DNA of 64,000 nt from positions 780 through 64,779 of the forward strand of contig JBGAPX010000006.1 of the NCBI GenBank assembly GCA_044221045.1. Direction: 5' to 3'. Shown one piece after another: positions 23,933 to 32,341 of the stretch (position 1 is its first letter; each line of letters opens with the position of its first letter). The notes beneath the pieces were generated by a model. That model worked only from the letters and a program-made list of their open reading frames with translations. It searched no databases and was not told the origin of the DNA. A program made the position numbers and the translations under genes. This DNA is from Gemmatimonadales bacterium. Lineage in GTDB: Bacteria; Gemmatimonadota; Gemmatimonadetes; Gemmatimonadales; GWC2-71-9.

Positions 23933-23968
23933 TTGCGGTCGAAGTTGCATAATGCATATTTATCCCCC
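23933..23968 (+). promoter_or_regulatory. arg operon promoter with ARG-box-like sequence
   Basis: AT-rich island TTGCATAATGCATATTTAT in GC-rich DNA, with two TGCAT half-sites, immediately before argG; argR is in the same operon. Confidence 0.55.
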
Positions 23969-25153
23969 ATGAAGACCTGCGTCCTCGCCTTCTCGGGCGG
24001 CCTCGACACCTCCTTCTGCGTCCCGCACCTGGCTGAGCAGGGCTGGGCCGTCCATACCGCCTACGTGAACACCGGGGGCGCCACCGCCGCCGACCTCGAC
24101 GCCATCGCCCGGCAGGCCGCGGCGGTCGGGTCGGTGCGGCACCATACGGTGGACGCCAGGCAGGCGGTCTTCGACCGGTTCGTCCGGTACCTCATCCAGG
24201 GGAACGTGCTGCGGGGCGAGGTCTATCCCCTCTCCGTGGCCGCCGAGCGGACCCAGCAGGCGCTCTCCGCCATCGAGGTGGCGCGCCAGGTGGGCGCCAC
24301 GGCCGTGGCGCACGGTTCGACCGGCGCCGGCAATGACCAGGTCCGGTTCGACATCGCCTTCCGGGTGCTGGCTCCCGACCTCGAGGTGATCACGCCCATC
24401 CGCGAGCTCGGGTTGCAGCGCGACCAGGCGATCGCGTACCTCGAGGCGCGGAAGCTGCCCGTCCCGCCGAAGGCGGGTGCCTATTCGATCAACCGGGGCC
24501 TGTGGGGCACCACGTGGGGCGGCGGCTGGACGCATGACACGTGGGCCGGCCCTCCCGCCGAGCTGGTCGACCCGCCCGCCGACGCGCCTGCCCCGCGGGA
24601 AATCCTCCTCGGCTGGGAGCACGGTATTCCCGTCAGCCTCGATGGCGCCCCGACCGGCGGGCCCGAGCTGATCCGTCAGATCGGCGACCTGGGCGAGGCC
24701 TACGGATTCGGCCGCAACATCCACGTCGGCGAGACGGCCCTCGGGATCAAGGGCCGGATCGGATTCGAGGCCGGCGCGGCGCTGCTGCTCATCGCGGCGC
24801 ACCGGGAACTGGAGAAGCTGGTCCTCACCAAGTGGCAGGCCTTCTGGAAGGACCAGCTGGCCCGCTTCTACGGTGACCGGCTGCACGAGGGGCACTACTT
24901 CGACCCGGCCCTCCGCGACATCGAGGCGCTCCTGACCAGCAGTCAGCAGCGGGTGAGCGGTGAGACCCGGGTGCGGCTGGCCCCAGGGCGGTTCCAGGTG
25001 GTCGGCACCCGCAGCCCATTCTCCATGATGGACCGCAGCGTGGCCACGTACGGCGAGGAGAACCGGCTGTGGACCGGCGCGGAGGCCCAGGCCTTCAGCC
25101 GCGTCTCGGCAATTCCCGAGCTCCTCGCGGAGCGGGTCCTCCACAAGCGGTAG
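23969..25153 (+). CDS. argG: Argininosuccinate synthase
   Basis: LAFSGGLDTS, HGSTGAGNDQVRFD, YSINRGLWG, GIKGRIGFEA. Confidence 0.95.
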   Translation: MKTCVLAFSGGLDTSFCVPHLAEQGWAVHTAYVNTGGATAADLDAIARQAAAVGSVRHHTVDARQAVFDRFVRYLIQGNVLRGEVYPLSVAAERTQQALSAIEVARQVGATAVAHGSTGAGNDQVRFDIAFRVLAPDLEVITPIRELGLQRDQAIAYLEARKLPVPPKAGAYSINRGLWGTTWGGGWTHDTWAGPPAELVDPPADAPAPREILLGWEHGIPVSLDGAPTGGPELIRQIGDLGEAYGFGRNIHVGETALGIKGRIGFEAGAALLLIAAHRELEKLVLTKWQAFWKDQLARFYGDRLHEGHYFDPALRDIEALLTSSQQRVSGETRVRLAPGRFQVVGTRSPFSMMDRSVATYGEENRLWTGAEAQAFSRVSAIPELLAERVLHKR

Positions 25154-25241
25154 GCGGCGGCAGGCGACCGGCGCCGGGCGGGATGGAACGGCCATCCCGC
25201 CGGCCTCGGTCTTCTCCATTCTCCCGGCAGGAGGACGTCCC

Positions 25242-26324
25242 ATGGTGAAGACCACCCGCATCCGGCTCGACAAGATCTCGTCGAGCACCCGGAACGCGCA
25301 CCTGACGGCGGAGGTGATCCTCGGTGACGAGATCATCGCGGCCGAGGGGTACGTGCTCGCCGTGCGGATCCTGCACGACAAGTCGAGCTACAACACGATC
25401 GAGGACCTGTCGGGGCGGATGGTCTCCCTCCGTGCCGGCGACGTGCTGGCGGGGACGCTGGGGCACCGGCGCGCGCTGCGCGGCTATGCCGGCGTGGTGC
25501 CGAGCCACGTGGCCGTGGGCGACACCATCGAGGTGCTCAACCTTGGCGGCATCCTGGGGCGCTGCACCTCCGCCAACCCGGAGAACGGCATGCCCTTCAA
25601 GGCGGAGGTGCTGGGCGCGATCCTGACCTTCCCGGCGCTCGGCGACCGGATCGGCCACCCGGCGCACATCAAGGACCATTCGGTGCCGGTGGCGGAGCGG
25701 CTGGAAAGCCAGGTGCCCGTGGTCTACATCGCCGGCACGTGCATGAACGCGGGGAAGACCGTGGCCGCCACCGAGCTGGTGCGGGGCCTCAGCCGCTCCG
25801 GGCTCCGGGTGGCGGCGAGCAAGCTGACGGGCGTGTCCTTGATGCGCGACGCGCTGTCCATGGTGGACGCCGGCGCCATCGCGGCGCTCACCTTCAACGA
25901 CATCGGCATCGCCACCACCCGCGCCGGGCTGACCGTCACGGCCGCCAAGGGGATCTTCAACCGGCTCGCCGCGAGCAAGCCGGACGTCATCGTGGCGGAA
26001 CTGGGCGACGGGATCCTCGGCGAGTACGGGGTGCAGGACATCCTCCGCGACCCGGAGCTCACCGGCGTCGGGGCGGCCTACGTGATGGCCGCGCCGGACC
26101 CGGTCGGGTGCTGGGGCTCGGTGACACTCATGCGTGACCTGTTCGGCCTGCCGGTGACCGTCCTCACCGGGCCCGCCACCGACAACGAGGTGGGCCGCGA
26201 CTACGTGAAGGCGGAGCTGCGGCTCCCGGCCTTCAACGCGCTCCGCGAGGCCCCCGCGCTGGTCGAGGTGGTGCGCCAGGCGCTCGACGCGCGCCTGGCC
26301 GCTCCCGCCCTGGCGGGGGCGTAG
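25242..26324 (+). CDS. DUF1611-like (DgcN-related) P-loop protein; candidate glutamate N-acyltransferase
   Basis: GTCMNAGKT, KLTG, DAGA...F.D.G..TT, ELGDGILG motifs recalled from DUF1611-annotated proteins. AGGAGG RBS, inside the arg operon. The function is inferred. Confidence 0.65.
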   Translation: MVKTTRIRLDKISSSTRNAHLTAEVILGDEIIAAEGYVLAVRILHDKSSYNTIEDLSGRMVSLRAGDVLAGTLGHRRALRGYAGVVPSHVAVGDTIEVLNLGGILGRCTSANPENGMPFKAEVLGAILTFPALGDRIGHPAHIKDHSVPVAERLESQVPVVYIAGTCMNAGKTVAATELVRGLSRSGLRVAASKLTGVSLMRDALSMVDAGAIAALTFNDIGIATTRAGLTVTAAKGIFNRLAASKPDVIVAELGDGILGEYGVQDILRDPELTGVGAAYVMAAPDPVGCWGSVTLMRDLFGLPVTVLTGPATDNEVGRDYVKAELRLPAFNALREAPALVEVVRQALDARLAAPALAGA

Positions 26325-26329
26325 CCCGG

Positions 26330-27376
26330 ATGGCGCTCCGGGTGGCGGTGATCGGGGCCGCCGGCTACGTCGGCGGTGAACTGCTGCGGTTGCTGGCCGA
26401 CCACCCGGAGGTGGGTTCGGTCGTCGCCACCAGCCGCAGCAAGGCCGGCGCCCCGGTGGCCGAGACGCATCCGCAGCTGGCGCCGCTCACCGACGCACGC
26501 TTCTCAGGTGCTACCCCCGCCGAGGCGGCCCGGGAGGCCGACGTGGTGTTCCTGGCGCTGGAGCATGGGGAATCGTCAAAGGTGGCGGGAGAGATCCTCG
26601 AGGCCGGGGCGGCGCTGGTGGTCGACCTGGCCGCCGATTTCCGGGTGCAGGACCTCGAGCTGTACGCCCGTTACTACGGGCAGCATCCCGCGCCGGCGCT
26701 GGTGCCGCAGTTCACCTACGCGCTGGCCGACGTGCTGGGCGAGTCGCTCCGGGGCAGGCGCGCGCTGGCGGCGCCGGGCTGCTTCGCCACCGCGGCCGAG
26801 CTGGCGCTGTACCCGTTCGGCGGGCTGGGTGGGGGGCTCCTGCCGGCGCTGTTCGGCGTGACCGGGTCGAGCGGCAGCGGGGTGCACCCGAAGGCCACGA
26901 CGCATCACCCGGCGCGGGCCCACAATCTGTTCGCCTACTCGGTGCTGGGGCACCGCCACGAGGCCGAGATCCTCGAGCGCTGGCGCGCGTGGACCGGGAC
27001 CCCGGCCGCGCGGGCCCGGCTCATGACGCACTCGGGCCCGTTCGTGCGGGGGATCCACCTGACGCTGCACGTGGACCTGGAACCGGCGCGCGCGGCCGCG
27101 GGGGCGGTGGATGTCCGGTCCCGGTTCCGCGACGCCTACGCGGGGCGGCCCTTCGTCCGGCTGGTGGACCAGCCGCCGGAGCTGACCCACGTGATCGGCA
27201 CCAACCACGCCCTGATCCACGCGGCCCAGTCGGCGGACGGCCGCGAGGCGCAGGTGATGGTGGTGATCGACAACCTGGTGAAGGGCGCCGGCGGGCAGGC
27301 CATCCAGGCGATGAACCTCGCACTGGGGCTGCCGGAGACCGCGGGACTGCGGTTCGGCGGGCTCTATCCCTGCTGA
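26330..27376 (+). CDS. argC: N-acyl-gamma-glutamyl-phosphate reductase
   Basis: VIGAAGYVGGEL, DLAADFR, APGCFATA, GSSGSG, IDNLVKGAGGQAIQAMN. Confidence 0.95.
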   Translation: MALRVAVIGAAGYVGGELLRLLADHPEVGSVVATSRSKAGAPVAETHPQLAPLTDARFSGATPAEAAREADVVFLALEHGESSKVAGEILEAGAALVVDLAADFRVQDLELYARYYGQHPAPALVPQFTYALADVLGESLRGRRALAAPGCFATAAELALYPFGGLGGGLLPALFGVTGSSGSGVHPKATTHHPARAHNLFAYSVLGHRHEAEILERWRAWTGTPAARARLMTHSGPFVRGIHLTLHVDLEPARAAAGAVDVRSRFRDAYAGRPFVRLVDQPPELTHVIGTNHALIHAAQSADGREAQVMVVIDNLVKGAGGQAIQAMNLALGLPETAGLRFGGLYPC

Positions 27377-27404: not shown

Positions 27405-28421
27405 GTGACCAAGCGGGACTTCATCACCGTCGAGGACTGGTCGGCCGAGGAGGTCGACGCGCTGCTCGCGCTCGCGGCGAAGGTCAAGCGGGGCGAGGTG
27501 CTGGGCGGCCTCGAGCGGAAGGTGATGGCCATGGTCTTCATGGACCCGAGCATGCGGACCCGGACCAGCTTCGAGACGGCCATGTACCTCCACGGCGGGC
27601 ACGCGGTGGTCCTGGAGCCGGGCAAGAGCAGCTGGAGCCTGGAGACCGAGATGGGTGCCGTCATGGACGGCACCACGGTGGAGCACCTCAAGGACGCCGC
27701 CCAGGTGCTGGGGCGGTACGCCGACGTGGTCGGGGTCCGCTCCTTCCCGCGGGGGGACGACTGGGCCAGCGTCCGGGAGGACCACGTCATCCGGGACTTC
27801 GCGCGTTACTGCGGGAAGCCGGTGATCAACATGGAGTCCACCCGGCGCCATCCCTGCCAGCAGCTGGCCGACGCCCTGACCCTGCGGGAGAAGCTGGGCG
27901 ACCCACGGGGCAAGCGGTTCGTGCTCATGTGGGCCTGGCACCCGAAGGCCCTGCCGACCGCCGTCCCGGCCAGCGCGGCGCTCGCCGCGGCGCACCAGGG
28001 GATGGAGATCGTGATCGCGCGGCCCGACGGCTACGAGCTGGACCCGGAGGACACCGCGCTGATCCGGCGGATCGCGCAGGCGCGGGGGGGCGAGTTCGTG
28101 CACATCATCAACGACCCCGACGAGGCGCTGGTCGGGGCGGACGTGGTGTACGTGAAGAGCTGGGGGTCGGTGAAGCAGTTCGGGCGGCCGGAGGAGGAGG
28201 CGGCGCTGCGCCGGGGGCTGCGGGACTGGCGGCTGACCGCCCCCAGGCTCCGCTCCACCCGCGAGGGCCGGGCCACGGTGATGCACTGCCTCCCGGTACG
28301 GCGCAACGTGGAGATCGACGACGCGGTGCTCGACGGTCCCACCTCGGCGGTGGTGGACGAGGCGGAGAACCGGCTGCACGTGCAGCGGGCGCTGCTGCTG
28401 GAGCTGATCGGCGGGCGGTAG
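27405..28421 (+). CDS. argF: N-acylornithine carbamoyltransferase (ArgF'; predicted N-succinyl-specific)
   Basis: SMRT, EH...VRSFP, HPCQ, HPKALP, HCLPVRRN: acylornithine-type transcarbamylase motifs rather than canonical OTC (STRT, SMG). Confidence 0.92.
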   Translation: MTKRDFITVEDWSAEEVDALLALAAKVKRGEVLGGLERKVMAMVFMDPSMRTRTSFETAMYLHGGHAVVLEPGKSSWSLETEMGAVMDGTTVEHLKDAAQVLGRYADVVGVRSFPRGDDWASVREDHVIRDFARYCGKPVINMESTRRHPCQQLADALTLREKLGDPRGKRFVLMWAWHPKALPTAVPASAALAAAHQGMEIVIARPDGYELDPEDTALIRRIAQARGGEFVHIINDPDEALVGADVVYVKSWGSVKQFGRPEEEAALRRGLRDWRLTAPRLRSTREGRATVMHCLPVRRNVEIDDAVLDGPTSAVVDEAENRLHVQRALLLELIGGR

Positions 28422-28448: not shown

Positions 28449-29393
28449 ATGACACGGATGAGCATCGATACCTCGAAGGGCATCACCGGGCTCAAGGGCG
28501 CGCTCCGCTACGTGCGCGCCTACCGGGACAACGTCTTCGTGGTGAAGCTGGGCGGCGACGTGCTCGCCGACACCGAGGCGCTGGACCGGGTGGCGGGGCA
28601 GATCGGGCTGCTCTCCTCGCTCAACATCCGGATCGTCCTGGTGCATGGCGGTGGGCCGCAGGCCACCGCGCTGTCGCGCCGGCTGGGGCAGGAGCCGGTG
28701 ATCGTCGCGGGCCGCCGGGTGACCGACGACAGCGCGCTCGACGTGGCCAAGATGGTCTACGCCGGCACCCTCAACGTGAACCTGCTCGCGGCCCTCCGGG
28801 CCCACGAGGTGCAGGGCGTGGGGCTCTCCGGCGTGGACGCCGACCTGCTCTCGGCCCGCCGCCGGCCGCCGGTCACCGTGGTGGACGACGCGGGGGTCTC
28901 ACGCGAGGTGGACTTCGGCCACGTCGGCGACGTGGACCGGGTGGACCCGCGGGTGCTGCTGACGCTGCTCGACGCCCGCTTCGTGCCGGTGGTGGCCAGC
29001 CTGGCCGGCGACGGGGAGGGGCAGGTCTTCAACGTCAACGCCGACACCGTGGCCGAGTCGCTGGCCGTGGCGCTCAAGGCGCAGAAGCTGCTGTTCCTGA
29101 CGGGCGCCCCCGGGGTGCTGCGCGACCGCGCCGATCCCTCGAGCCTGGTGACCTTCGCCGACCCCGACGACCTGGCGGCGCTCATGTCCAGCGGCGCGAT
29201 CGCCGGGGGCATGCGTCCCAAGGTGGAAGCCTGCATCCGCGCCGCGACCGGCGGGGTCGAGCGCACCCACATCATCGACGGCCGCCTTCCCGATTCCATC
29301 CTGCTCGAGGTGTTCACCGGGGCGGGGTGCGGGACGATGATCGTCGGCCGCAAGGAAAAGGCGACCTACCTTGGCGTGGACCTCGCGACCTGA
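28449..29393 (+). CDS. argB: N-acylglutamate kinase
   Basis: VVKLGG, LVHGGGPQ, NVNAD, GGMRPK; 314 aa, no fused GNAT domain. Confidence 0.93.
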   Translation: MTRMSIDTSKGITGLKGALRYVRAYRDNVFVVKLGGDVLADTEALDRVAGQIGLLSSLNIRIVLVHGGGPQATALSRRLGQEPVIVAGRRVTDDSALDVAKMVYAGTLNVNLLAALRAHEVQGVGLSGVDADLLSARRRPPVTVVDDAGVSREVDFGHVGDVDRVDPRVLLTLLDARFVPVVASLAGDGEGQVFNVNADTVAESLAVALKAQKLLFLTGAPGVLRDRADPSSLVTFADPDDLAALMSSGAIAGGMRPKVEACIRAATGGVERTHIIDGRLPDSILLEVFTGAGCGTMIVGRKEKATYLGVDLAT

Positions 29394-30447
29394 GATCGGC
29401 CTGCTCCGCGACCTGGTCGCGATCCACTCCGTCAGCGGGACCGAGGAGGGGATTGCCCGCTGGGTGGTGGAGTGGGCGGAAGCGGCCGGGCTCGCCGCGG
29501 CGCGGGACGATGCGTCCGTGGCGCTCACCGTGCCGGGACGGGCGGCCGGCCCCACGCTGGCGTTCGTGTCGCACCTCGACACGGTGCCGGCGGGGGAGGG
29601 GTGGACTCGTCCGCCCTTCGCGCCGACCATCGAGGACGACCGCCTCTACGGCCGCGGCTCGGGCGACGCCAAGGCCTCGGTGGCGGCCATGCTGATGGCC
29701 GCCCGTGACCTCGCCGAGGCGGGGGGCCCCGCCCGCGGCCGGCTGCTGGTGATCCTCGGCTATGAGGAAGAGACCAAGCACACCACCATGGGCACCGCGG
29801 TGGAACGGCTGGGCCCCATCGACGCGGCCGTGGTGGGGGAACCCACCAACCTCGAGCCCGCGATTGCCCAGCGCGGCCTCATGATGGCCGACCTGGTGGC
29901 CCGCGGGGTGCAGCGCCACGCCGGCTACGCCGCCGACAACCCCGACTTCACGAACGCCATCGTCGAGCTGGGGCGTAACGTGGCGAAGCTGCCCGCCCTC
30001 TTCCGGGACCGGGTCCACCCCATCCTGGGCATCGCCACGGCCACGCCCACGATGCTCGAGGGCGGCGTGAGCCGGAACGTGACGCCGCCGGTGGCGCGGG
30101 CGGTGCTCGACGTGCGCAGCACCCCCAACTGGACCCACGCCGAGCTGGCCGAGGCGCTCCGGGCGGCGCTCGACGTGGAGGTGGTGATCACCTCGGACCG
30201 GCTGGTGCCCTGCGAGACCCCGGCCGCCTCCCGGCTGCTGGCGGTGGCGCAGGCCATCCGCCCCGAAGGGAAGCCGTTCGGTTCTCCCACGTGCTCCGAC
30301 TGGGTATTTTTGCGAGACAAGGACGCCATCAAGTGCGGGCCCGGTACCAGCCGCCGGTCGCACACCCCGGACGAGTTCGTGGACCTCCCCGAGGTCACGG
30401 CCGCCCGGGACTTCTACCGTCACCTCGCCCAGGCCTACCTCGCATGA
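29371..30447 (+). CDS. argE: M20-family deacylase (ArgE-like; acyl-citrulline/ornithine deacylase)
   Basis: SHLDTV, GRGSGDAK, YEEE, GEPT, SHTPDE; operon context. Start uncertain (TTG overlapping argB). Confidence 0.85.
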   Translation: MAWTSRPEIGLLRDLVAIHSVSGTEEGIARWVVEWAEAAGLAAARDDASVALTVPGRAAGPTLAFVSHLDTVPAGEGWTRPPFAPTIEDDRLYGRGSGDAKASVAAMLMAARDLAEAGGPARGRLLVILGYEEETKHTTMGTAVERLGPIDAAVVGEPTNLEPAIAQRGLMMADLVARGVQRHAGYAADNPDFTNAIVELGRNVAKLPALFRDRVHPILGIATATPTMLEGGVSRNVTPPVARAVLDVRSTPNWTHAELAEALRAALDVEVVITSDRLVPCETPAASRLLAVAQAIRPEGKPFGSPTCSDWVFLRDKDAIKCGPGTSRRSHTPDEFVDLPEVTAARDFYRHLAQAYLA

Positions 30448-31889
30448 GCAAGCCCAAGAAGTCCCGCCCCACGGGACGCCGGCCCGCGGACGCGCCGGCT
30501 CCCGCCCTGCCGACGACGCTCTGGGTCTCGAGCAACTCGCTGGACCGCCAGATGCTCGACTACACCGCGACCGAGGACCGGCTCTGGGACGGCCGCCTGA
30601 TCGCGTGGGACATCCTCGGCAGCCTGGGGCACATCGAGGGGCTCCGCGCCTCCCGGCTCCTGTCGCAGGGCGAGTACCAGAAGATCCGCGCCGGCCTCCG
30701 CCTGGCGCTGCGCGAGGTGGACGAGGGGCGCCTGGTGCTCGGGCCCGAGCACGAGGACGTGCACACCTGCGTCGAGGACTGGCTGGTGCGGCGCACCGGC
30801 GCGGCCGGCGAGCGGCTGCACACCGGGCGTTCGCGCAACGACCAGGTGGCCTGCGACCTCCGGCTCTACCTCAAGGACCGCCTGCTGCTGCTCTCCGGCG
30901 AGGCGCTCGACCTGGCCGAGAGCCTGCTGATGTTCGCGACCCGCTACCAGCGAGTGCTGTGGCCGGGGTACACCCATACCCGCCGGGCCATGCCCTCGTC
31001 GGCCGGCCTGTGGGCCGCGGCCTTCGCCGAGGGGATCATCGACGTGGTCGAGGCGCTGCCGGCGGTGTGGGCCAAGGTGGACCGCTCCCCGCTGGGCAGT
31101 GCCGCCGGCTACGGCGTCCCCCTGCCGCTCAAGCGGGAGGCGGCCGCGAAGGCCCTCGGCTTCGGGGCCCTGGAGCACAACGTGGCGCTGGTCCAGAACA
31201 GCCGCGGCAAGCTCGAGGCGCTGGTGCTCTTCTGGTGCGTGCAGCTGGGCCACGAGCTCGGCAAGCTCAGCACCGACATCATCACCTTCAGCGCCGACGA
31301 GTTCGGGTTCCTGGTGCTGCCGCCCGACCTGGCCACCGGCAGCAGCATCATGCCGCACAAGCGGAACCCCGACCTGTTCGAGCTCACCCGCGGCCGCGCC
31401 GCTGCGCTGGAGGGCGACCTGCTCACCGTCTTCCAGGTCAAGAGCAAGCTCGGCAGCGGCTACCACCGCGACTTCCAGCTGATCAAGGAGCCGGTCATGC
31501 GCGGCGTGGACCGCCTCGAGGGCATGCTGTCCATGCTCGCGGTCGCGGTGCCGCGGCTGGGGGTGGACGCCTCCGTGGGGCGCGACATCCTCTCCGGCGG
31601 GCCGCTCGCCACCGACGAGGTGATGCGGCGCGTCGAGGGCGGCAGCGCCTTCCGCTCGGCCTATCGCGAGGTGGCCGCTGCCATCAAGGAAGGCGACTGG
31701 TGGCGCGAGCCGGCCACCGACGAGATCATCAGCCGCCGCCGCAGCACCGGCGGGCTGGGCAACCTGGGCCTGGGGATGGTCCAGGGACGCCTGCGCGCCT
31801 GCCGCCGCTGGGCCGACCGGGAGCAGCGGCGGTTCGATGGCGCGATGCACGCGCTCGCCGGCCGTGGCGGCGCCCGCGGACGGTCATGA
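30444..31889 (+). CDS. argH: Argininosuccinate lyase
   Basis: LHTGRSRNDQV, PGYTH, GSSIMPHKRNPD; ATGA overlap with argE. Confidence 0.95.
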   Translation: MSKPKKSRPTGRRPADAPAPALPTTLWVSSNSLDRQMLDYTATEDRLWDGRLIAWDILGSLGHIEGLRASRLLSQGEYQKIRAGLRLALREVDEGRLVLGPEHEDVHTCVEDWLVRRTGAAGERLHTGRSRNDQVACDLRLYLKDRLLLLSGEALDLAESLLMFATRYQRVLWPGYTHTRRAMPSSAGLWAAAFAEGIIDVVEALPAVWAKVDRSPLGSAAGYGVPLPLKREAAAKALGFGALEHNVALVQNSRGKLEALVLFWCVQLGHELGKLSTDIITFSADEFGFLVLPPDLATGSSIMPHKRNPDLFELTRGRAAALEGDLLTVFQVKSKLGSGYHRDFQLIKEPVMRGVDRLEGMLSMLAVAVPRLGVDASVGRDILSGGPLATDEVMRRVEGGSAFRSAYREVAAAIKEGDWWREPATDEIISRRRSTGGLGNLGLGMVQGRLRACRRWADREQRRFDGAMHALAGRGGARGRS

Positions 31890-32341
31890 GCGGCGACCGG
31901 CGCAAGCGGCTCCTCAAGATCCTCGAGCTCATCAGCACCCGCCCGGTGCGGACCCAGGAGGAGCTCGCCGACGCCCTCTCCGCCGAAGGCTGGAAGGTGA
32001 CCCAGAGCTCGGTGAGCCGCGACATCGCCGCGCTCAAGCTGGTGAAGGTCGACGGCGCCTACCAGCGGCCGGCCCGGATCGCGGCCGTCCCGGAGCATCC
32101 CGATGAACGGCGCATCGCCGAGGGGGTGCTCACGGCCGACCCCGCGGGCGACGCGCTGCTGGTCCTGCACACCCCCGCCGGCGAGGCCAACCGCGTCGCC
32201 GTGGCCATCGACCGGCTGGCCTGGCCAGACGTCATCGGGAGCATCGCCGGGGACGACACGATCTTTCTCGCCGTGACCCACGGCGCCGCGCAGCAGCGCC
32301 TGCTGCGGCGCCTCCGCCAGCTGACCGACACCCGGCGTTAG
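31886..32341 (+). CDS. argR: Arginine repressor
   Basis: RTQEEL...VTQSSVSRDI winged HTH; GSIAGDDTIFL arginine-binding motif. Confidence 0.95.
   Translation: MSGDRRKRLLKILELISTRPVRTQEELADALSAEGWKVTQSSVSRDIAALKLVKVDGAYQRPARIAAVPEHPDERRIAEGVLTADPAGDALLVLHTPAGEANRVAVAIDRLAWPDVIGSIAGDDTIFLAVTHGAAQQRLLRRLRQLTDTRR

Follow-up and report, generated by a model that had tools for sequence, protein, structure and literature searches.

A candidate N-succinyl-L-glutamate synthase of the P-loop type in the arginine operon of a Gemmatimonadales bacterium

The window analysed here is a stretch of 64,000 nucleotides (nt) from a Gemmatimonadales bacterium (GenBank assembly GCA_044221045.1, contig JBGAPX010000006.1, positions 780 to 64,779), and it carries an arginine operon in which the gene between argG and argC, here called X, matches none of the known arginine enzymes. 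I propose that X probably N-acylates L-glutamate, which is the amino-protecting first step of the linear arginine pathway, and that the product is most likely N-succinyl-L-glutamate. Three observations carry this proposal: the gene lies directly upstream of argC wherever its context could be read, it never occurs together with another glutamate N-protecting enzyme in the Gemmatimonadota genomes searched, and the carbamoyltransferase of its operon carries a valine at the position that governs the choice of acyl group. The functional idea itself is not new, since the GapMind 2026 preprint already predicts it for a Steroidobacter protein.

Results

An earlier note on this DNA, made from the letters alone, had described a 360-amino-acid gene with its own ribosome-binding site between argG and argC, in an operon without argA, argJ or a GNAT gene and with an ArgB free of any fused GNAT domain. 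This description is accurate. The open reading frame is intact (Table 1), and Pfam and NCBIfam scans of the operon proteins found no ArgA, ArgJ or GNAT; a GNAT fused to ArgB or ArgH is ruled out by protein length and domain coverage, as ArgB consists of the amino-acid kinase domain alone and ArgH has no GNAT tail. The genes are ordered argG-X-argC-argF'-argB-argE-argH-argR, the final three being coupled by ATGA overlaps. The operon also lacks argD, which in other phyla sits between argC and argF'. X as a stand-in for the absent argD is ruled out, because the operons of other phyla hold both X and argD. Three class-III aminotransferase genes clustered elsewhere in the genome of the window (G000:C82:17092-26203) are candidates for the missing argD.

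The position of X is conserved far beyond this operon. In all 47 Gemmatimonadota carriers X lies directly upstream of argC, and the same holds for 8/8 contexts read in other lineages (Elusimicrobiota, Eisenbacteria, two Planctomycetota, one archaeon and three metagenome contigs); the survey for homologues in arg operons proposed in the earlier note thus comes out in its favour. Further arg genes cluster with X in seven of these eight contexts, typically in the order argR-argG-X-argC-argD-argF'-argB-argE-argH, while the remaining one, from a member of the Planctomycetales, consists of the X-argC pair alone. No ArgJ was found in any of four X-bearing genomes outside Gemmatimonadota. Close homologues of X come from metagenome-assembled genomes of Gemmatimonadota, and the family as a whole comprises 1423 representative clusters at E <= 1e-3, of which 171 remain at E <= 1e-30, with named organisms from the Elusimicrobiota, Planctomycetota, Thermoanaerobaculia, Eisenbacteria, Chloroflexi and several archaea. 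All records that bear a protein name read 'hypothetical protein'. One full-length homologue (P0231, XP_045949244.1) is filed under Aspergillus melleus on a 3.4-Mb scaffold, which points to bacterial contamination or horizontal transfer.

Further evidence comes from the distribution of X relative to other N-protecting enzymes. I searched 151 Gemmatimonadota genomes with seven queries: the X profile, ArgJ, the NAT domain, ArgC, classical ArgA, a model of genuine DUF1611 proteins, and a GNAT encoded in the arg operon of X-less relatives (L121:10973-11512), which matches the N-acetylglutamate synthase (NAGS)-type proteins PRK07757 and PRK07922 and the C-termini of ArgA and ArgH(A). An argC gene is present in 120 of the 151 genomes, and X occurs in the arg operon of 47 of these 120. 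ArgJ, NAT-domain ArgA/B and the NAGS-type GNAT of arg operons are missing from all 47 carriers, and no classical ArgA was found in any of the 151 genomes. Conversely, at least one of ArgJ, NAGS-type GNAT and NAT domain is found in 65 of the 73 argC genomes without X, and the other eight come from a group with lysW-lysX directly upstream of argC at each of the four loci that were read. Outside this eight-genome group, every one of the 112 argC genomes thus has exactly one class of N-protection solution, and the four loci within it add LysW/LysX as a further class. The exclusion of X from the alternatives gives p = 2e-25 (Fisher, one-sided, uncorrected for phylogeny), and the overlap is zero also at the genus level. 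The test of anticorrelation with argA, argJ and GNAT synthases that the earlier note had proposed thus shows no co-occurrence of X with any of them in this phylum. Because X excludes both the GNAT synthases and LysX, and is the sole gene of its operon left unassigned, I assign it to the first step.

As a side observation, the Gemmatimonadota use at least four routes of glutamate N-protection and switch between them even among genera within one family: X; a short GNAT of the NAGS type encoded behind argC-argB-argD, either alone or alongside ArgJ; ArgJ together with a NAT-domain ArgA/B; and lysW-lysX-argC. Example loci for the alternative routes are L116:7122-10759 and L121:7952-11512. In the LysW-type operons, an open reading frame of 216 amino acids (L116:9286-9936), whose product begins with the residues MC and lacks a Pfam match, lies between argC/lysY and argB/lysZ.

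The genome of the window (3.6 Mb) was searched for an enzyme that could perform the first step in place of X, and in its 92% complete sequence no ArgJ, classical ArgA, NAT-domain ArgA/B or LysW was found. Three weaker candidates were dropped. On contig C164, a GNAT fragment with likeness to the C-terminus of ArgA is part of an arsenic-resistance cluster, where it is flanked by genes for an ArsM-like methyltransferase, ArsR and an ACR3 pump; a weak second GNAT match (C72) is adjoined by no arg gene; and a LysX-like match at a contig edge (C129) is a truncated RimK-like gene heading a methanopterin-type cluster, in a genome from which LysW is absent. The latter cluster (G000:C129:1-6000) looks like one for making a cofactor of the tetrahydromethanopterin or methanofuran type: inspection of translations by eye, the sole basis for naming its genes, suggests a RimK/MptN-like ligase and 6-pyruvoyl-tetrahydropterin-synthase-like, HisA/F-like, amino-acid-kinase-like, MfnB-like and dihydropteroate-synthase-like genes.

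These data bear on a first alternative, in which X would serve the pathway as an accessory or regulatory P-loop protein, such as a partner of ArgC, an assembly factor or a nucleotide-sensing regulator, while an unrecognised GNAT or another enzyme encoded elsewhere would acylate glutamate. The constant joining of X to argC, which in the Planctomycetales locus is its only arg partner, would fit such a role, as would the 27 GNAT-domain matches in the window genome, whose role is unassigned, and the fact that many P-loop proteins of the SIMIBI class are regulators or metallochaperones (HypB, MobB). However, an accessory role leaves the absence of X from every genome with another N-protecting enzyme unexplained, the only NAGS-type GNAT of the window genome is the ArsN-like gene in the ars cluster, and the catalytic-type residues K172, T173, K194 and E253 of X are invariant or nearly so. 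I therefore regard this explanation as improbable.

The nature of the acyl group can be approached through ArgF', the carbamoyltransferase of the operon. The protein reads VMDGTTVEH, in which the valine aligns with Glu92 of the N-acetylornithine carbamoyltransferase of Xanthomonas campestris, and its best match among the PDB sequences is 3l06, the E92V mutant of that same enzyme. The GapMind 2026 preprint cites Shi et al. 2007 for the finding that replacement of E92 by A, P, S or V shifts the enzyme to N-succinylornithine. Among 70 X-linked loci, I find V at position 92 in 65, A in three, S in one and T in one, and E in none (0/70); the preprint itself gives A, P, S or V at this position in 90% of 70. 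From the valine and the E92 mutagenesis taken together, N-succinylornithine is the predicted substrate of ArgF' and the pathway is most likely succinylated, in line with the possible succinylation raised in the earlier note. Alternatively, X could perform the first step but yield N-acetyl-L-glutamate, as in the classical acetyl pathway. The top NCBIfam model for ArgF' is indeed named 'N-acetylornithine carbamoyltransferase', and the one characterised DUF1611 protein is described in the preprint as taking acetyl-CoA; still, the acetyl-specific enzyme has Glu92 where ArgF' has Val, and neither the linked ArgF' proteins nor the E92V structure speak for acetyl. An acetylated pathway thus seems unlikely.

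The motifs GTCMNAGKT, KLTG and ELGDG, which the earlier note had read in X and associated with DUF1611, are all present, but the family label does not hold. The sole Pfam match of X is to PF07755, the P-loop domain of DUF1611, which scores 21.5 bits where the cut-off is 25 and spans residues 155-214 only; 13/58 members of the X family match this model, with a best E of 1.6e-4. NCBIfam gave no match to X, the BioD and GNAT models included, and a single-sequence search of X against the PDB sequences returned chance matches only. Most X-carrier genomes also hold genuine DUF1611 genes (~250 bits), and the DUF1611 model misses X at E <= 1e-5; because of this coexistence and this miss, X falls outside DUF1611/DgcN. 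It is a separate family in the BioD-like branch of the SIMIBI P-loop proteins.

The AlphaFold2 model of X (pLDDT, the predicted confidence score, 96.8) consists of an all-beta N-terminal domain and a P-loop alpha/beta domain. Within the first, the family alignment shows G36, E54, G58, R59, G74, R76 and an LNLGG motif to be invariant. A fold search of the PDB with this domain alone (model pLDDT 92.4) gave nothing significant, with a best E of 0.43 and TM scores of 0.28-0.33, and found no DUF1611 structure; a likeness to the LexA C-domain (E 0.43, TM ~0.3) is dismissed as chance. In the Foldseek search with X, matches are confined to the P-loop half, where FtsY/Ffh, BioD, HypB and the DUF1611 structure 2OBN score alike (E ~1e-5 to 1e-6, TM ~0.4). 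The match to 2OBN has E 1.2e-5, TM 0.40 and a root mean square deviation of 5.0, and the DgcN structure 7XRJ is not among the 50 matches listed. The comparison with DUF1611/DgcN proposed in the earlier note thus yields a weak likeness of the P-loop half and no match of the N-terminal domain.

In profile-profile comparison with hhalign, X aligns to genuine DUF1611 with a probability of 43.9% (E 2.4e-4, 175 columns, only in columns 146-341 of X), whereas BioD, the best match, reaches 93.5% (E 2.4e-7, 102 columns); DUF1611 and BioD match each other with 94%. The view of X as a 'distant relative' of DgcN therefore applies at most to the P-loop half, which may be remotely related, and to which BioD is at least as close. 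DgcN and other DUF1611 proteins (PF07755; 7XRJ, 2OBN, 2G0T) resemble X in their length of about 350 amino acids, in a C-terminal SIMIBI P-loop domain, and in a GTxxxxGK motif followed later by E-G-x-G. They differ in their N-terminal domain, which is alpha/beta in DUF1611 and all-beta in X, and in the active-site region, where 2OBN, 7XRJ and 2G0T have GTDxxxGK followed by M/R, and ATGQTG without a lysine, whereas X has GTCMNAGKT and ASKLTG. With BioD (TIGR00347), in contrast, the GTxxxxGKT motif, the second lysine (KP motif, at K194 in X) and the Glu of VEGAGG (at ELGDG) all align, so that the catalytic set of BioD is found in X as K172/T173, K194 and E253, each invariant or at least 90% conserved. 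BioD is, however, a single domain of ~225-240 amino acids with no beta domain, as opposed to the two domains and 360 amino acids of X, and the window genome has a separate BioD (C19:37096-37596).

Table 1. Features of the arginine operon in the window, with the motifs and domains of X
Feature	Positions	Strand	Remarks
AT-rich near-palindrome TTGCATAATGCATAT	23945..23959	+	10 nt before argG start; probable ArgR operator or promoter element
argG, argininosuccinate synthase	23969..25153	+	Pfam Arginosuc_synth, Arginosuc_syn_C; TIGR00032 270.7 bits; ATG at 23969
GC-rich hairpin in 88-nt argG-X spacer	25170..25211	+	without T tail; RNA fold of 25150-25245: -51.3 kcal/mol, z = -1.94
Ribosome-binding site of X, AGGAGG	25229..25234	+	7 nt before ATG at 25242
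X, candidate non-GNAT N-succinyl-L-glutamate synthase	25242..26324	+	360 amino acids; intact open reading frame, ATG start
X N-terminal all-beta domain, residues 1 to ~150	25242..25691	+	proposed substrate-binding domain
X C-terminal SIMIBI-class P-loop domain	25704..26291	+	BioD, SRP-GTPase, DUF1611-like; Foldseek, hhalign
X Walker A GTCMNAGKT, residues 165-173	25734..25760	+	G171, K172 invariant; T173 at least 90% conserved
X KLTG motif, residues 194-197	25821..25832	+	invariant K194 aligns with second active-site lysine of BioD
X ELGDG motif, residues 253-257	25998..26012	+	E253 aligns with Glu of BioD VEGAGG; Walker-B-like
argC	26330..27376	+	TIGR01850 319 bits
argF', acyl-ornithine carbamoyltransferase	27405..28421	+	NF003384 412 bits; Val92 codon 27678-27680
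argB, N-acylglutamate kinase	28449..29393	+	314 amino acids; TIGR00761 215.8 bits; AA_kinase = residues 29-277
argE-like M20 deacylase	29371..30447	+	Peptidase_M20, M20_dimer; start codon uncertain
argH, argininosuccinate lyase	30444..31889	+	481 amino acids; TIGR00838 258 bits; ATGA overlap with argE
argR, arginine repressor	31886..32341	+	TIGR01529 103.8 bits, under cut-off; ATGA overlap with argH

The remaining features of the operon are collected in Table 1. All matches of the M20 deacylase to ArgE/DapE-family NCBIfam models are under their cut-offs, and the enzyme is probably an N-succinylcitrulline desuccinylase. The argR product shows 43% identity to an ArgR from Elusimicrobiota, and the near-palindrome in front of argG, AT-rich in a genome of ~70% GC, is a probable ArgR operator: TGCATAATGCA, allowing at most two mismatches, is found in the 160 nt that precede argG in 39/43 related loci, against a background of 0.014 per 160 nt, and these sites resemble TGCAT-N-ATGCA. 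Scanning the operon for promoter and terminator consensus sequences gave no match, and the hairpin between argG and X was not scored as a terminator. The 88-nt spacer of this operon has no counterpart in other phyla, where the two genes share 4 nt.

A sister family, X2, shares 34% identity with X, has both domains and carries the motifs GTSMDAGKT, IKLTG and EIADG. Its loci (L125:7874-8947 in genome G045, L156:1248-2303, L157:7001-8107 and L158:7001-8068) show a cassette, conserved outside arg operons, of X2, an M36-like metalloprotease-like gene, a PGA_cap (CapA/MslH-like) gene and an ABC exporter, an arrangement suggestive of peptide modification and export; some X2 records are named 'DUF1611 domain-containing protein'.

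The X2 cassettes touch on a third explanation, in which X would ligate glutamate to a carrier protein or peptide in the manner of LysX/ArgX rather than to a small acyl group. The presence of protease-like, CapA/MslH-like and ABC exporter genes beside X2 suggests peptide chemistry, and the slot directly upstream of argC is taken by lysX in related Gemmatimonadota. However, no LysW-like gene was found in the window genome, no small conserved open reading frame lies beside X in the eight contexts read in other lineages, and an acyl-ornithine carbamoyltransferase together with an M20 deacylase typifies small-acyl pathways, which makes a carrier-bound intermediate very improbable.

Discussion

In the pathway proposed here, X would convert L-glutamate to N-succinyl-L-glutamate, and ArgB, ArgC and an aminotransferase encoded elsewhere would carry this product on to N-succinylornithine. 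ArgF', with its Val92, would then carbamoylate N-succinylornithine, the M20 deacylase would free citrulline, and ArgG and ArgH would complete arginine synthesis. Within X, the all-beta domain with its invariant Arg and Glu would hold the dicarboxylate substrates, while the BioD-like P-loop domain would accommodate the nucleotide moiety of the acyl donor.

BioD uses ATP to activate a carboxyl-type oxygen by phosphoryl transfer, forming a C-N bond. As the BioD-type residues are kept in X, the acyl donor could be free succinate plus ATP, by the same type of chemistry, instead of succinyl-coenzyme A (succinyl-CoA), the counterpart of the acetyl-CoA used by DgcN. A more specific version of the former, which I advance tentatively as a possibility, is that X is an ATP-dependent succinate:L-glutamate ligase, in which the P-loop domain phosphorylates the succinate carboxylate and the all-beta domain presents L-glutamate. 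The grounds are that the GKT of the Walker A motif, K194 and E253 align with catalytic residues of BioD, two of which are missing from DgcN/DUF1611. If true, this would be a CoA-independent and mechanistically new opening of arginine biosynthesis, and the sister family X2 would apply the same chemistry in exported-peptide cassettes.

The first step of the arginine pathway is known to be solved by other proteins in the same position or role. The GNAT synthases (ArgA; the S-NAGS proteins PRK07757 and PRK07922; the arg-operon GNAT of Bacteroidetes) share with X the proposed step and the location in arg operons, but are unrelated in fold and ancestry, being GNATs and not a P-loop domain joined to a beta domain, and in Gemmatimonadota they alternate strictly with X. 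LysX/ArgX with LysW likewise stands at the pathway start, protects the amino group of glutamate and is encoded directly upstream of argC/lysY, and LysX is ATP-dependent; it has, however, an ATP-grasp fold, needs LysW and feeds downstream enzymes that use carrier-bound intermediates, whereas X shows no ATP-grasp match and is not accompanied by LysW. DgcN, finally, is according to the GapMind 2026 preprint a D-glutamate N-acetyltransferase with acetyl-CoA as donor and the sole characterised DUF1611 protein; it serves D-glutamate catabolism, in contrast to the L-glutamate acylation for arginine synthesis proposed for X.

The same preprint predicts, without experiment, an N-succinylglutamate synthase in Steroidobacter (ACG33_RS14135, A0A127FCT3), on the grounds of its linkage to arg operons, its never occurring with ArgA, a weak Foldseek match to DgcN 7XRJ and residue 92 of ArgF'. 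The family is described there as a hypothetical protein whose gene nearly always shares an arg operon with argB, C, D, F', E, G, H and R. As all of the preprint's descriptors are reproduced for X, the two appear to be the same family. There are differences in detail: Steroidobacter has no recognisable ArgE, whereas the window operon has the M20 deacylase, and the exclusion shown in the preprint concerns ArgA only, whereas here it extends to ArgJ, S-NAGS GNATs, NAT-domain ArgA/B and LysW/LysX. A full-text literature search found no paper joining DUF1611 with arginine or N-acetylglutamate synthase; the only two papers found to mention DUF1611 concern Dickeya, as far as their titles and abstracts tell.

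Several points weigh against the assignment of X to glutamate succinylation. I infer both the reaction and the succinyl group, and the support for the function, as for the replacement of ArgA by a non-orthologous protein that the earlier note had put forward and that the conserved context and zero co-occurrence favour, is that of comparative genomics only. An anticorrelation with ArgJ is expected of any gene in an operon of the argF'/argE type, so that the step of X is assigned partly by elimination. The window genome is 92% complete, and some unrecognised synthase could be hidden among its GNAT matches, which were screened solely for NAGS-type similarity. The likeness in fold to the characterised glutamate acyltransferase DgcN is weak and confined to the P-loop half, and I infer the link to the Steroidobacter protein from descriptors, not from sequence. 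Nonetheless, the exclusion of X from all genomes with another solution, together with its fixed place before argC and the residue of ArgF', makes a first-step enzyme the probable role.

What is new in this study is the division of a whole phylum into alternative solutions for glutamate N-protection, the BioD-like residue set of X and the sister family X2. The first step is the most variable of the arginine pathway, with ArgA, ArgJ, S-NAGS, ArgH(A), NAT-ArgA/B and LysX/LysW already on record, and a 'gap' at this step is frequent in metabolic reconstructions of uncultured bacteria. If confirmed, the function proposed for X would add a non-GNAT P-loop enzyme to those that N-acylate glutamate and would give a function to a domain without a solved relative. 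It could also allow correct calls of arginine prototrophy across much of Gemmatimonadota, Elusimicrobiota, Planctomycetota and Acidobacteriota, and in some archaea.

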